Origin: an uncultured bacterium
GTDB taxonomy: Bacteria; Babelota; Babeliae; Babelales; Babelaceae
Length of the DNA: 64,000 nt
Reading direction: 5' to 3'
Assembly (NCBI GenBank): GCA_963848965.1
Contig: CAWKFG010000001.1
Span: 64,001 to 128,000, forward strand
Shown piece by piece: positions 7,433-64,000 of this stretch (position 1 is its first letter; each line of letters starts with the position of its first letter). The translations under genes and the position numbers were made by a program. Below the pieces are notes generated by a model, which saw only the letters and a list, made by a program, of their open reading frames with translations, made no database searches and had not been told where the DNA came from.

Positions 7433-9208
7433 TTATTCTGTAGTTGTTTTTTCTGAAAGAGCTTGTGTGTTTTTTAAAAGTTTAGCAATTTCAGGAAGAT
7501 TAAGCTCATATGCTAAGTCAAGAGCTGTTTTTCCGAGGGTATTTTGAGCAGTCTTATCTGCTCCTAATGCAAGGAGTTCTTGTATGTACTTTGTATACCT
7601 GTGCATTACTGCCAGCATTAAAGGGGTTGTCCCTTTATCGTCACAAGGGGTATTAAGAGCATGTTGTAACGTAATAGTGTCGATTAAGAATTTTTTGGCA
7701 CAAACAGCTTTGTGAGATTTCCACTCTTTTTTTTGACACTCAGAAGAGCAATACTTGAATATATGGCACCGATCACATAATAAAAGTGGTTGAGAAGTAG
7801 CTTTACAATGAGCACATGCGTTAAAGTCTAGAGTTGGTTGAACTCGCTTTAAATCTTCTATTAGAGAACCATAGTGCGTGTCTTTAAATGCGTTTTTTTT
7901 GTCCATAAAGGTTAGATACCCATTTCTGATGACGCTACTAAATATAGCTTTCTCTTGAGTATGAGGTATATTTACCCGCGCGCCTTGTTCAAGAAGTAGT
8001 GCAATAAGGTCTTGAGGAATTTTTTTAGAGAGTGCATGGAATAGAGCAGTATGACCATTGTTGTCATGCTCATTAATATCGGCCTTACAGCTTGCCATAA
8101 GATTTAAGATCGGTATAAGTATGTCAAGACTATTAGCACAGATAGCCATCATTAAAGGTGTCTTTCCATTATCGTCATGTGCTTCTGTAATAAAGGGAAA
8201 ATGTAAGAGCAGCTCTTTTTTATTTCCTTTTATTAGATTACGAGTAAGAGCAAGCTTAAAGGCAGAGGATTTTTGTAGCTTGAAGAAAAAAAGTCCGAAT
8301 GTGTAGATATCAAAGGGCGCACCATGTTCTACAAGAGTACAGATAGTTTCTTCATCTTCATAAGGAACAGCAAAATTTAAGAGCAATCCATGCTTAGGAT
8401 AGTTGGCTGTAACGTTGGCTCCTGCTTCAACGAGTGCAGTTACTACTTTGCTATATTTACCTTGTATAGCAAGATGAAGTGCAGTGTATCCTTCCTTATT
8501 TACTGCATTAATATTTTCTTTAGATGCCTTAAGAATCATTTGTACTATCTCAAGATGCCCTTGAGCAGATGCTATAATAAGTGGCGTATTACCAAGTATA
8601 TTGTAGGTTAAAGGAGTAGCGCCTTTTTCAAGTAATTCCTTAACAATTGTGATATATCCTCCATGTGAGGCATGAGATAAACATGTTTCTCCGCCATGCA
8701 AAGAAGTAGTAACATTCGCTCCTAAAGAGAGGAGTAATTGTACTATTTTTAAAAAACCCTTTTGTACGGCTATAGTTAAAGCATTATCTCTTTGAGTACA
8801 TGCTTTTTGATTTTTGAAGTTGAAGTATTTAAGTACGAGACGTACAAGTGCTTCATTGCCACGTGTTACTGCATAAATAAGAGCAGAGCCATTATCTCGA
8901 GTTTCTTCATAAACAGGTGCCTTTGCTTCTAATAGAATACGAACAACTTCTATTTTTTGATTATCAATAGCCATTATTAGAGGAGTCATACCATTCTGAG
9001 GAGACTTTGTATTTATATCTGCTCCAGCATGTAAGAGCGCTTTAACTGTTGCAACTTCTCCATTACATGCTGCTATAAGAAGTTGCAAATTTTTTGCTTC
9101 TTGCACGGAAAGTGGCCGTATGGAATGATTTTTTTCCTTTTGCATACCATATGTTATAGAAAAGAAGGAAAGAAATAGAAGTGAATAGATACAGAGATAG
9201 TTATTCAT
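7433..9208 (-). CDS. Secreted ankyrin-repeat protein with MYND zinc finger
   Basis: Probable start 9208 (MNNYLC...ITYG|MQKE); many G.TPL..A ankyrin repeats; CAHC...LLLCDRCHIFKYCSSECQKKEWKSHKAVC matches zf-MYND. Confidence 0.9.
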   Translation of the reverse strand: MNNYLCIYSLLFLSFFSITYGMQKEKNHSIRPLSVQEAKNLQLLIAACNGEVATVKALLHAGADINTKSPQNGMTPLIMAIDNQKIEVVRILLEAKAPVYEETRDNGSALIYAVTRGNEALVRLVLKYFNFKNQKACTQRDNALTIAVQKGFLKIVQLLLSLGANVTTSLHGGETCLSHASHGGYITIVKELLEKGATPLTYNILGNTPLIIASAQGHLEIVQMILKASKENINAVNKEGYTALHLAIQGKYSKVVTALVEAGANVTANYPKHGLLLNFAVPYEDEETICTLVEHGAPFDIYTFGLFFFKLQKSSAFKLALTRNLIKGNKKELLLHFPFITEAHDDNGKTPLMMAICANSLDILIPILNLMASCKADINEHDNNGHTALFHALSKKIPQDLIALLLEQGARVNIPHTQEKAIFSSVIRNGYLTFMDKKNAFKDTHYGSLIEDLKRVQPTLDFNACAHCKATSQPLLLCDRCHIFKYCSSECQKKEWKSHKAVCAKKFLIDTITLQHALNTPCDDKGTTPLMLAVMHRYTKYIQELLALGADKTAQNTLGKTALDLAYELNLPEIAKLLKNTQALSEKTTTE

Positions 9209-9368
9209 AAAAAGTCCTAGGTAAAAATACAAGAAGAAGTCTATTATTTTATTTATAATAAGCATAAATATGAGTAAAAAATTGTCAAGGATCCTCTCTT
9301 TCTTGGCGTTCTTTATAATTCTACGTATACTATAAGAGATAGTAAAAACTTTTTAGAGTAGAAACACA

Positions 9369-10295
9369 ATGCATGCTCTTGATTTTATGAAATCACTTAG
9401 TGCTTCTGGCAATCCAAGTCCAGGCCCACTTACGTTTCATAGCTCTCAATTTTCTCCGTTATTTCTTTTTTGTTTTCAGTCGTATATACGGTCTTTTTTG
9501 TCGCTTACGATACTGGATGTCTATAACCAGCCTTTTGAAAGCTTAAAGGGGTTATGTGAAACAAGCTTTTTGGGAATGCAAGCATTTTATTGGTTTAAGG
9601 ATTTTCATCTTCTTGATGCACATTCAAAACGTAAGTGGTTGGAATACCTTAAACAGTATAAAGGGCCTCATACTATTTTTCTTTTTGATACAGGCAATCC
9701 AGTATTAGAAACGTTGTATACACTTCCTGAATTTGTTTCTAAAGATCTTTATAAAGAGCTCTGTATGTTCTTTTTTCCCGAGATACCTCTTGAGAAAGAG
9801 TTTCTCTTAAAACTTTTTGAAAAGAAAGAAAAATTGAGTCTTGAAGAGGCTATTATTGTAATGAATTATCAAATGGCAGTGGGCAAAAAAGTCGATGCAT
9901 TTTTTCATGACTGGTTTTCTAAGATTTTTGTACCAGAACATTCTCTTTTTACGTTAAGTCAACATCTGTTTGCGCAGCAATCAAAAGACTTTTTTTCTTT
10001 GTGGTCTCACTGTTCATCGGAGTATCCGCTTGAATTCTGGACTGCCTACTGGTCTGAACAAGTATGGCAAGGAGCTTTATTTGTGTTACGAGTTCAACAA
10101 GAGGGTATTGTAGTAGCAAAAAAGTATGCTCAACGATTGCCCTTTTCTTTTATAAATAAAGACTGGAAAAAGCATACGTATAAAAAGCTTGTTGATGCAC
10201 ATCATGCTCTTTATATGCTTGACCATACGGTAAAAAATGGAGGAGCGGACTACGGACTTGAAGTTTGGTACTACACGTTTTTGAAAAATACCTAA
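9369..10295 (+). CDS. Hypothetical protein, probably a divergent DNA polymerase III delta subunit (HolA-like)
   Basis: About 310 aa; TSFLG after the first helix, SLFTL, and C-terminal LYMLDHTVKNG...LE resemble HolA (L...D..IKtG....LE). Confidence 0.5.
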   Translation: MHALDFMKSLSASGNPSPGPLTFHSSQFSPLFLFCFQSYIRSFLSLTILDVYNQPFESLKGLCETSFLGMQAFYWFKDFHLLDAHSKRKWLEYLKQYKGPHTIFLFDTGNPVLETLYTLPEFVSKDLYKELCMFFFPEIPLEKEFLLKLFEKKEKLSLEEAIIVMNYQMAVGKKVDAFFHDWFSKIFVPEHSLFTLSQHLFAQQSKDFFSLWSHCSSEYPLEFWTAYWSEQVWQGALFVLRVQQEGIVVAKKYAQRLPFSFINKDWKKHTYKKLVDAHHALYMLDHTVKNGGADYGLEVWYYTFLKNT

Positions 10296-10297
10296 TG

Positions 10298-63300: not shown

Positions 63301-63666
63301 TTGATGCTTGCTTCTATTTTTGGTCACTTTAAGGTTATAGAATTATATAAAGAGTGCTCTGGCAAGTACCTTAATGTATACGATGATACTGGGTCTACCG
63401 CACTCGATTACGCTTTAAAATATAATAGCCCTAGCGCTCGTATTCTTATTCATATTTATGGTGATAAAATTGACAGGGTAAAAGAAGATAAGCAAGGACT
63501 TCTTAAAATAGCGATAGCACAGAAAAATATGCTCTTAGTACAAGACCTTTTAGGTATTGGCGCAAAGCCTTCTTTTGATGTATCTCAAAAAACAAGAGAA
63601 GCAAGCTATCTTAATGCACTACCAAAAGAGCTATTTGCTCATCTTCTTCTTTTTCGAGGTAATTGA
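60388..63666 (+). CDS. Large secreted ankyrin-repeat protein with C-terminal F-box-like motif
   Basis: LNA|MEK leader; more than 20 ankyrin repeats; ends YLNALPKELFAHLLLFRGN. Confidence 0.92.
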   Translation: MFYYLFMIPLLYFSFYLNAMEKVAETRSQENHIILNLSPESMLLKAVFNKNIDEVQSLCQSKVNVNVQAKDGNTPLIVAAIKESKEIVEILLAAGADVCIQNTKGATALVGAIEFNQKDIARVLLDADKGSDINACIANGLTLLGHSVSHEHEELVNLFLEKGASVNVRDTFGRTALMYAVAKGNKKIVELLLGAGAALDIKDNQGWTAITYAACYFHEELLLLFKKRDRERVLKEINELLLASIQNDNIRLFTLLLKCGASVYTKDITETPVLIRAAKRGNEGMVKMLLDEHAYIDKTDSKGCTALMYAAQNGYEGIVKLLISRGTDINWTSFNNLTALMYAAANGREEIVKILLDAGADSKKKDRQNTTALMYAVKNNHKGVVTLLLDRCIQDITKADTAALVSSAIESENKDMVALLIDRGTDVNLKVGYYDTPLLSLAASKGSKEIVGLLLNKGARINVRDNDGKTALIHAAKDGHIEVVKLLLSGVSTAEGKDREPSLLRDTADINAKDKDLNYTALMRAVKNGHKEVVALLVDRGADLDIQDIMNKTALMLATEGRLKEIVALLMDKGADSSIANSEGDTPLIKAAMNGHEDIVTVLLDKGADINERNSVHGNTALEFAAGEGHKEVVQILLKRGSKVTIANRYRGTALTSVVSRSHNKEILELLIAHGADVNTIDREGWTALMWASYQGSKELVKVLLDAGADVNAKREYGPTALMKAVEKKQKEIAEMLIKAGADVTIQTGNSWTALMAAAQKGDREIVALLLAHGANINLVNTLYGNTALMHALVTGKKKVAEMLIKAGADVNVQNNEGDTPLMEAIKRRCKKLAILLIERGADINVKNKKSITALLDAAKKGDKELVKVLIDAGADVNAQGSIDGWTPLMYAVHNGYQEIVVLLIGSYAKLNLQNNKGETALDIAMNNKSQGSKDNVHLITLCNDPEVQAYLKDPEGYAQSKRYINGTLTVLMLASIFGHFKVIELYKECSGKYLNVYDDTGSTALDYALKYNSPSARILIHIYGDKIDRVKEDKQGLLKIAIAQKNMLLVQDLLGIGAKPSFDVSQKTREASYLNALPKELFAHLLLFRGN

Positions 63667-63676
63667 AAGGATTATA

Positions 63677-64000
63677 ATGTTATATGTAGTATATACTCTT
63701 TCTTTGCTTTGTGTTTCATTGTCCATTACTGCTATGCATGAAACAGATAGCAAAGAATTACAGAACCCCTGTAGCAATGTAGAGCTTTTATCAGAAGAGC
63801 AAAAGGCTTCTTTACTTTTTGAAGCAGTAAAAAATAATGATGTAACGGCTGTGAGAAGTCTCTGTTCTAGCATAAAAGATATTAATGCTCACTATAATGA
63901 GAAGATAGGCTTCACTTCTTTAATGTGGGCAGCTGCTCAAGGAAATAAGGAAATAATTGCCCTTCTTCTTAAGCATGGAGCTCGGACTGAAATACGAAAT
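63677..64000 (+). CDS. Secreted ankyrin-repeat protein (partial, runs off the window)
   Basis: GAAAGG RBS; MLYVVYTLSLLCVSLSITA|MHE...LLFEAVKNNDV...GFTSLMWAAAQGNKEIIALLLKHGA; open to the window end. Confidence 0.88.
   Translation, partial: MLYVVYTLSLLCVSLSITAMHETDSKELQNPCSNVELLSEEQKASLLFEAVKNNDVTAVRSLCSSIKDINAHYNEKIGFTSLMWAAAQGNKEIIALLLKHGARTEIRN

Follow-up and report, generated by a model that had tools for sequence, protein, structure and literature searches.

Twelve genes in a 64,000-nucleotide stretch of an uncultured Babelaceae genome (GenBank assembly GCA_963848965.1, contig CAWKFG010000001.1, positions 64,001–128,000, that is, G000:C1:64001–128000; hereafter the window) had been described in an initial annotation as encoding mostly eukaryote-like proteins with a secretion leader whose predicted cleavage site is followed directly by methionine. 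The feature is not limited to those genes, and its scale had been understated: it is genome-wide and lineage-wide, and about one gene in six of this genome encodes a secretion leader and then Met. The motif, Met followed mostly by Glu or Gln, is real, independent of paralogy and under strong constraint, and it marks eukaryote-like and orphan cargo, not envelope enzymes. We read it, with confidence slightly better than even, as a lineage-specific mark, kept by selection, at the mature N-terminus of host-directed cargo, which would be exposed by cleavage and read afterwards. Below, Met1 denotes the start of the leader and Met2 the methionine at the junction; positions are numbered from the predicted cleavage site, Met2 being +1.

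The genome comprises 1.73 Mb in five contigs, with 37% G+C and a completeness of 88.7%. Open reading frames (ORFs) were called across it with a crude longest-ORF, greedy non-overlap caller, giving 1579 ORFs, 1374 of them of at least 100 amino acids, and cleavage sites are predictions throughout, made with our own rules and a self-trained weight matrix. The position of the first internal Met peaks at residue indices 18–21, with 47, 58, 46 and 40 ORFs against ~10–25 on either side. In a test that made no use of the motif, Met lies directly before the first charged residue in 25% of the 673 ORFs with an uncharged hydrophobic N-terminal run, an enrichment of ~15-fold over the background Met frequency of 1.7%; Ala, Gly or Ser lies two residues before the first charged residue in 42%. 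A strict rule (leader of 15–30 amino acids, hydrophobic core, last 14 residues uncharged, Ala, Gly, Ser, Cys or Thr at −1, Met, then a non-hydrophobic stretch) retrieved 234 of the 1374 ORFs, and a relaxed rule 251. A weight matrix built from positions −14 to −1 only gave 321 sites at 12 bits or more, 181 of them with Met at +1 and many of the others being membrane anchors. The same scripts applied to 400 kb of Escherichia coli K-12 as a control returned 2/75 and 6/351, with Ala as the commonest +1 residue. The Met-leader pattern is far beyond chance.

By their n-, h- and c-regions the leaders resemble substrates of the Sec pathway and signal peptidase I (SPase I), and the description of them as Sec-type holds in each part: a positive n-region, an uncharged hydrophobic core, a small residue at −1 and a small or aliphatic one at −3. 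Lys occupies leader positions 2, 3 and 4 in 32%, 29% and 20% of cases, and the mean net charge over the first 8 residues is +1.23. Positions −12 to −7 are mostly Leu, Ile or Phe, the length mode is 18–21 and the mean best 8-mer hydropathy 2.82, h-region hydrophobicity and leader length having themselves belonged to the selection rule. In the strict-rule set, −3 is Leu in 36%, then Ser, Ile, Thr, Val or Ala; −2 is Tyr in 30%, Phe in 16% and Gln in 12%; and −1 is Ala in 35%, Gly in 28% and Ser in 24%, a small residue having been demanded there by the rule. Leu at −3 is commoner here than in the textbook −3/−1 rule. Because that rule permits no other site near Met, given Tyr or Phe at −2 and Met and Glu after it, cleavage is predicted to fall before Met.

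On the mature side of the junction, the strict-rule set has Glu at +2 in 53%, Gln in 15% and Lys in 11%, with Lys, Pro, Gln or Arg at +3 and Glu, Ala, Asp or Pro at +4. When no filter was placed on downstream residues (n = 219), Glu stands at +2 in 123 proteins, Gln in 30, Asp in 4 and Lys in 25; Asp, Glu, Asn and Gln together account for at least 157 of the 219 (at least 72%), whereas hydrophobic residues make up 5% against a background of 35%, and small ones (Ala, Gly, Ser, Thr, Cys, Pro or Val) 8% against 32–45% at +3 to +7. These counts match the class of N-termini of the acetyltransferase NatB that the initial annotation named, in which Asp, Glu, Asn or Gln comes after Met.

Other known leader and targeting signals were considered and set aside. 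A lipoprotein signal for signal peptidase II (SPase II) would have Cys, not Met, at +1 and Ala or Ser, not Tyr, Phe or Gln, at −2; ~30 separate lipobox-like N-termini occur in the genome. The RRx-hydrophobic pattern of a twin-arginine (Tat) signal occurs in just 4 of the 234 leaders. A type IV prepilin-like leader does not match, the hydrophobic stretch lying before Met and the sequence after it being polar (hydrophobic residues 5–20% at +2 to +7). The Plasmodium export element (PEXEL), RxLxE/Q/D, was found in 4 of the 234 leader proteins, fewer than the 12 of 234 seen for a control stretch; for RxLR the two counts are 2 and 3. Separately, three giant ankyrin proteins (1690–1773 amino acids) are encoded in a row at G000:C4:683–699 kb; their leaders end in Cys or Gly and are followed by MKR, a recurrent junction sub-type, and then by an acidic Ser-rich stretch.

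The earlier argument that paralogy alone does not suffice to explain the feature holds on the scale of the genome. Families were formed by all-against-all BLASTP of the mature parts with single linkage at E ≤ 1e-5, which places the Met-class proteins in 95 families, 64 of them singletons, and the leader proteins without Met in 69. The largest family, of ankyrin proteins, has 182 members, 120 of them in the Met class, and about half of all cases are ankyrin paralogs; once paralogs are collapsed, 64 of the 103 singleton families have Met at +1. Over 324 non-redundant predicted sites, picked without requiring Met, no position near the predicted cleavage site is as conserved as that of the +1 Met, where pair identity is 0.53, compared with 0.27 at −1, 0.22 at +2, 0.19 at −3 and 0.06–0.09 at +3 to +12. 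Within the ankyrin family, Met occupies +1 at 115 of 121 sites (pair identity 0.90), with 0.06–0.13 at +3 to +12 and the flanks at chance level. Single-base exits from this Met to Val or Thr are nearly absent. A residue without function would by now be as variable as its neighbors, so the Met is evidently under selection.

The proteins that carry the motif are of a particular kind. Pfam annotation of leader proteins was limited to C1:1–400 kb and C4:1–400 kb and covered 150 consecutive ORFs of any class in C1:1–175 kb, 22 of the 25 leader proteins outside the ankyrin family in C1:175–400 kb (three near-identical C2H2 paralogs being omitted) and, in C4:1–400 kb, 48 leader proteins that belong to none of the ankyrin, WD40 and C2H2 families. 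The Met class contains 16 ankyrin proteins (two of them also with zf-MYND), 6 C2H2, 4 LRR, 2 WD40 and 2 RING proteins and 1 mitochondrial carrier, together with weak DnaJ, thioesterase and FGase matches and one AAA protein. The class without Met contains NAGPA, Metallophos, Peptidase_S41 with PDZ, GH3, GH1 and PGA_cap proteins, two glycosyltransferases, two DUF5122 propellers, DUF4097, DPPIV_N (weak), DnaJ, AAA and adenylate kinase. The proposed tie of Met to eukaryote-like cargo and its absence from envelope enzymes is reflected in ratios, with Met to without, of 31:3 for eukaryote-like domains and 4:15 for other domains, which count paralogs and so overstate independence; a further ~34 proteins with Met and ~27 without it have no Pfam family. 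Upstream of the site the two classes are alike in length, charge, hydrophobicity and −3 to −1 residues, a comparison that is partly circular, the non-Met class having been picked by a matrix trained on the Met class; sites placed by eye in the Pfam-annotated enzymes are consistent with like leaders in both classes. At such by-eye sites, 12 of the 22 annotated non-Met proteins start with Gln, Glu, Lys, Asp, Leu, Phe or Tyr.

Of the export machinery, SecY, YidC and Ffh are encoded, as is one Peptidase_S26 protein (LepB), matched with PF10502; no second SPase I was found beyond this single Peptidase_S26 match, other peptidase families not having been searched. Because both classes share the leader type and the single LepB, the information would lie in the mature N-terminus. 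Genes resembling the type II secretion system (T2SS) co-occur with the leaders, a point that the initial annotation had proposed to check, in the form of three tandem secretin genes at G000:C4:767–775 kb (open frames of 1153, 818 and 796 amino acids) and two T2SSE-type ATPases; VirB4 and FHIPEP were not found in this 88.7% complete genome. Within 6 kb, at G000:C1:323.7–329.6 kb, lie the sole gene for signal peptidase I, one for a T2SSE-type ATPase and that for the leader-bearing mitochondrial carrier.

Which of the two methionines serves as the start was judged from Shine–Dalgarno-like cores counted within −20 to −4 upstream of each Met codon. Such a core precedes Met1 in 153 of 234 genes (65%), and ordinary cytoplasmic starts in 166 of 283, whereas it precedes Met2 in 4 of 234 (1.7%) and random internal Mets in 187 of 1240. 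The depletion at Met2 is owed partly to leader composition, codons for Arg, Gly and Glu being excluded there, and alone argues solely against Shine–Dalgarno-led initiation at Met2. Because these sites precede Met1, not Met2, the leaders are translated from Met1. The second residues also differ: Glu follows Met2 in 53%, whereas at 423 ordinary N-termini Lys accounts for 18% and Glu for 7%, and Lys follows Met1 in 32%. A Kozak-like context at Met2 (purine at −3, G at +4) was rejected as a signal, since the residues favored at −1 (Ala, Gly, Ser) and at +2 (Glu) produce it by themselves.

The twelve leader genes of the window are as follows (↓, predicted cleavage site; Pfam, domain assigned by Pfam).

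7433–9208, minus strand: ankyrin and zf-MYND protein (Pfam); leader 9208–9146 (MNNYLCIYSLLFLSFFSITYG), Met2 codon starting at 9145, SITYG↓MQKEKN
14219–15064, plus strand: C2H2 zinc-finger protein (Pfam); leader 14219–14272, Met2 at 14273, VNVYG↓MGYDLE
25953–29189, plus strand: ankyrin protein of 1078 amino acids (Pfam); leader 25953–26015, Met2 at 26016, YTYA↓MKRAPE
41450–41992, minus strand: acidic protein of 180 amino acids without a Pfam family; leader 41992–41936, Met2 codon starting at 41935, SSYA↓MIGNVV
43720–45663, plus strand: ankyrin protein (Pfam); leader 43720–43773, Met2 at 43774, TMQG↓MKREQE
50180–51016, plus strand: ankyrin protein (Pfam); leader 50180–50236, Met2 at 50237, CLYS↓MEAPPK
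52314–53297, minus strand: ankyrin protein with a GTG start (Pfam); leader 53297–53235, Met2 codon starting at 53234, SAYS↓MKRTLT
54734–55711, minus strand: ankyrin protein (Pfam); 29-amino-acid leader from the ATG at 55711 (MEIIKLCSQRQSSLFYFFFILCFSCALNA), Met2 codon starting at 55624, ALNA↓MEKIVL
56071–56229, plus strand: 5′ portion of an ankyrin gene interrupted by an insertion sequence (IS); leader 56071–56130 in frame, FQLSA↓MEQIYK, the ORF stopping after 52 amino acids
59842–60075 (locus 59789–60075), plus strand: C2H2-finger ORF of 77 amino acids starting MKEER; leader ATG at 59789, one base out of frame
60388–63666, plus strand: ankyrin protein of 1092 amino acids (Pfam); leader 60388–60444, Met2 at 60445, YLNA↓MEKVAE
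63677–64000, plus strand: ankyrin protein running off the window (Pfam); leader 63677–63733, Met2 at 63734, SITA↓MHETDS

The original list of twelve stands for the most part: the leader is in frame with Met at 11 of the 12 sites, and 10 of the 12 genes are intact ORFs, the two that fall short being the gene at 59789, whose leader is one base out of frame, and that at 56071, which is cut by the IS. Just after the 56071 ORF lies an IS transposase gene of IS4/5 type (56282–57103, DUF4096 and DDE_Tnp_1), and beyond it a leaderless ankyrin ORF of 820 amino acids (57174–59636), with the leader and 32 amino acids remaining on the other side; the two parts are a single ankyrin gene split by the IS. 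The gene at 59789–60075 is broken as assembled. The upstream reading in frame with its MKEER ORF is ...NTLFTLLCIFSSYAYT↓MKE, without a start codon, and the shift lies in or near an A-run after the ATG; it may mark a pseudogene or a site prone to slippage, or be an error of sequencing. The junction of the acidic protein (41450–41992) is atypical in having a hydrophobic residue after Met, and in the 43720 gene another possible site, SLT↓MQG, likewise exposes Met. No additional Met-leader cases were found in the window; one extra loose match, at 4536–6209, was false, its true site being CFG↓APGDLD. The observation that the secreted phosphatases, the AAA+ protein and the beta-propeller do not have Met at +1 is correct, leaders without Met being present on the phosphatases at 12252 and 38888, the AAA+ protein (29202–31436) and the propeller protein (4536–6209).

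Further features of the window deserve mention. Housekeeping genes (ffh, trmD, rplS, murC, yidC, recR, trpS and glmM) are interspersed with the many ankyrin genes. Signal-peptide-like N-termini without Met are seen on an adenylate kinase (31564–32271) as well as on the AAA+ ATPase at 29202–31436, and a second, ordinary adenylate kinase is encoded in the ribosomal operon. Two motifs were noted at window positions 59,5xx–59,636, 63,6xx–63,666 and 60121–60267 and at G000:C1:579–595 kb. One, LPK[ED]LF..LLLF, recurs at the end of large ankyrin proteins and resembles F-box or PRANC sequences, but three such C-termini gave no Pfam match to either at E up to 1. The other, ..YL[DE]LLPQ, follows immediately after the junction Met in a gene cluster. 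The RNA polymerase beta′ gene at window positions 1–1089 is perhaps split or frameshifted, a 1074-amino-acid ORF ending near position 230 and its apparent continuation being an overlapping ORF at 613–1089 (Rpb1_5).

The trait is derived and lineage-specific. Relatives comprised 30 genomes of 0.5–1.9 Mb, from one family and one order, and 40 genomes drawn from the phylum, all of the same order; 100–200 kb was sampled per genome, and a zero in samples this small does not mean absence from the genome. Met lies before the first charged residue in the following numbers of ORFs.

Family f1: G002, 16/59; G018, 10/70; G003, 4/25; G010, 2/43
Family f10: G027, 8/70
Family f14: G038, 6/34; G034, 3/35; G043, 3/42; G050, 0/38
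Families f5, f3 and f12: G061 (f5), 0/22; G020 (f3), 0/20; G029 (f12), 0/39

The trait is strongest in the present genome and in G002, where the residue after Met is Glu in 7, Asp in 5, Gln in 4 and Asn in 4 of 23 cases. Judged by eye, the leader-bearing ankyrin N-termini have the junction Met in 6 of 10 cases in G014 and in 5 of 9 in G010. In G061, of a sister family, leaders are present on 17 of 26 ankyrin ORFs; the junction, judged by eye, is ...A↓AQ or A↓AK in 10 of the 17 and A↓MQ in just one.

The history of a junction can be followed best in the mitochondrial-carrier protein encoded at C1:328704–329585, which has a leader and the junction SYA↓MEKPQK. Among 19 family genomes searched, one homologue was found, in G003 (41% identity, VNT↓MQQEK). 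A large protein collection supplied nine non-self homologues (P0002–P0010), eight of them with leaders; the junction Met is present in six of these eight, down to 31–38% identity, and is followed by Glu, Asp, Lys, Asp, Gly or Glu, the other two having Ile or Asn at the junction. P0005 has no leader and starts MEEEKPQ. A eukaryotic carrier homologue, P0011, likewise has no leader, and in a by-eye alignment its first Met falls within about one residue of Met2 of P0009. The carrier family thereby fits a history in which a leader was added before an existing start codon and the Met was then retained. For the RING proteins, one homologue was found, with Met kept. Adjoining the carrier homologue in G003, locus L234:2385–3134 encodes a leader-bearing RING-finger protein with the predicted site VICS↓NLND and no Met.

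In the reading that we favor, an ordinary-looking Sec leader, translated from Met1, would be carried by ankyrin, LRR, WD40, C2H2, RING, MYND and carrier proteins meant for the host cell; the single SPase I would cleave before Met2, exposing Met followed mostly by Glu or Gln (Asp or Asn in relatives) or by Lys; and this N-terminus would be read after cleavage, marking cargo destined to pass from the periplasm to the host. One candidate reader is host N-terminal surveillance, which could treat Met-Asp/Glu/Asn/Gln as a native NatB-type class in which Met is retained. Another, equally conceivable, is a second export or sorting step, via the secretin-based system or vesicles. Reading by the host is favored by the +2 spectrum, which is that of the NatB class, with hydrophobic or small second residues scarce, and by the envelope enzymes, which in the 12 of 22 cases above freely use +1 residues that would be destabilizing in the eukaryotic cytosol. 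A bolder form of this reading, that Met-(Glu/Gln/Asp/Asn) may be a bacterial host-targeting code which separates several hundred effectors from resident periplasmic proteins, and which either a second-step exporter recognizes or the host cytosol takes for a native NatB-type N-terminus, is one we put forward tentatively and are inclined to doubt somewhat more than to believe.

Several observations weigh against a mark that is read after cleavage. If avoiding degrons were all that mattered, drift to Val, Thr, Ala or Ser would be expected at +1, and it is not seen. NatB is known to act co-translationally, so that acetylation of an imported protein is conjectural. Because the ankyrin leaders of G061 mostly read A↓AQ or A↓AK, Met is not required everywhere for the export of leader-bearing ankyrin cargo. 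In the present genome, two WD40 proteins and one ankyrin protein have leaders without Met, and the paralogs in the cargo counts and the circularity of the leader comparison count on the same side. Secretin number also had to be rejected as a correlate of the trait: there are 3 secretins here and 2–3 in each of the ten relatives checked, regardless of the presence of Met.

Among other explanations, the idea that Met2 is a relic of leader grafting, left over and functionless in former ATG-start genes, many of eukaryotic type, that gained a leader, had already been raised in the initial annotation, and it is plausible as an account of origin: Met2 of the carrier proteins sits where leaderless homologues start (P0005, and P0011 to within about one residue of P0009 Met2), a few ankyrin paralogs start ME... 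or MN... without a leader, and a eukaryote-like cargo bias would be expected. As a neutral relic, however, it is unlikely. A functionless Met should decay, whereas that of the ankyrin family stays fixed at a pair identity of 0.90 amid randomized neighbors at 0.06–0.13; ~95 independent grafts would be needed, each ending exactly at the boundary between −1 and +1; the residue after Met is Glu in 53%, compared with 7% where ordinary genes start; and A↓AQE in G061 beside A↓MQE hints that Met replaced Ala in proteins that already had leaders. Leader grafting may well explain the origin of the feature, not its maintenance. The notion of Met2 as a second start codon, giving a leaderless cytoplasmic isoform beside the exported one, is the sole idea that by itself demands ATG; ~40% of ordinary genes have no Shine–Dalgarno-like site, and the frameshifted leader at 59789 leaves an ORF beginning at Met2. 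It is nevertheless disfavored and, in our view, very unlikely: Shine–Dalgarno-like sites are rarer before Met2 (4/234) than before random internal Mets (187/1240), partly through leader composition, real starts favor Lys (18%) over Glu (7%) as the second codon, and no cytoplasmic use is evident for ~240 host-type proteins.

The motif might instead act during processing, with Met-Glu at P1′–P2′ tuning the rate, fidelity or release timing of SPase I for fast-folding repeat proteins and no downstream reader involved. The motif does abut the scissile bond, one Peptidase_S26 gene was found, and an early acidic mature residue favors Sec export in E. coli; even so we think such an effect distinctly unlikely, as envelope enzymes with the same −3 to −1 pattern use many other +1 residues, exported ankyrin proteins of the sister family carry Ala at +1, and no SPase I is known to prefer Met at P1′. 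That the whole pattern is an artefact of chance, wrong starts, misplaced cleavage sites or one expanded paralog family is scarcely credible. The ORF caller is crude, half of the cases are ankyrin paralogs and a few loose-filter matches are false, for example that at 4536–6209 (CFG↓APGDLD); against this stand the ~15-fold enrichment in the motif-free test, the negative E. coli control, Met in 64 of 103 singleton families, normal ribosome-binding sites at Met1 and a −3/−1 rule that permits no other site near Met.

The significance of the motif lies in a gap in the biology of these parasites: no type III or type IV injection system is present, yet hundreds of eukaryote-like proteins carry Sec leaders, which raises the question of how they pass from periplasm to host. 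A two-residue mark at the cleavage site, constrained more strongly than the site itself, gives that question a handle. The motif defines an effector set from sequence, here of ~240 proteins; it would be a rare case of information in the residue after a signal peptide, and it bears on whether host N-terminal quality control shapes secreted effectors. A host-targeting code, if true, would be a prokaryotic counterpart of PEXEL and RxLR, would allow effector prediction by sequence alone, and would sit in one branch of obligate parasites of protists.

Published accounts of the Dependentiae (TM6/Babelota) report, in the portions consulted, signal peptides on 79 of 126 ankyrin proteins of Babela massiliensis (PMC4378268), on 44% of all coding sequences and 78% of ankyrin proteins of Chromulinavorax destructans (PMC6561590), and gspD in duplicate in every TM6 genome studied (PMC4776705). 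The present genome agrees with what those portions describe in being small and host-dependent, in its many ankyrin proteins, mostly with predicted Sec leaders, and in having T2SS-like genes with duplicated secretins and no type III or type IV secretion system. Those portions mention neither the residue after the cleavage site nor the Met-Glu signature, its confinement to eukaryote-like cargo or its uneven occurrence from family to family; what was already in print is that the phylum's ankyrin proteins carry signal peptides, to which a cargo-specific code would here be added. No report was found in the literature of a +1 Met or a post-cleavage motif in these bacteria, although published supplementary signal-peptide tables may list sites.

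Beyond the phylum, the logic resembles that of PEXEL (RxLxE/Q/D) in Plasmodium and RxLR in oomycetes, in which a short motif by a secretory leader separates host-directed from resident proteins; processing of PEXEL also exposes a new N-terminus with Glu, Gln or Asp as the second residue, as would be the case here. The likeness is in logic only, since the motif described here abuts an SPase I site in a two-membrane bacterium and implies no dedicated protease. Lipoprotein sorting (avoidance of the Lol pathway at +2, and the lipoprotein export signal of Bacteroidetes) offers a second parallel, residues +2 to +5 deciding the compartment and acidic ones being prominent; there, however, a lipidated Cys stands at +1 after SPase II, whereas Met, which does not accept such a lipid, stands at +1 here, on soluble repeat proteins. 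In composition there is a match to NatB-type N-termini and the N-degron rules, with Met kept before Asp, Glu, Asn or Gln, and with the Met-hydrophobic degron and small residues, which permit Met removal, shunned. It differs from these in that the N-terminus would be made by a bacterial peptidase, not by host translation, and in that Lys at +2 (11%) is not of NatB type.

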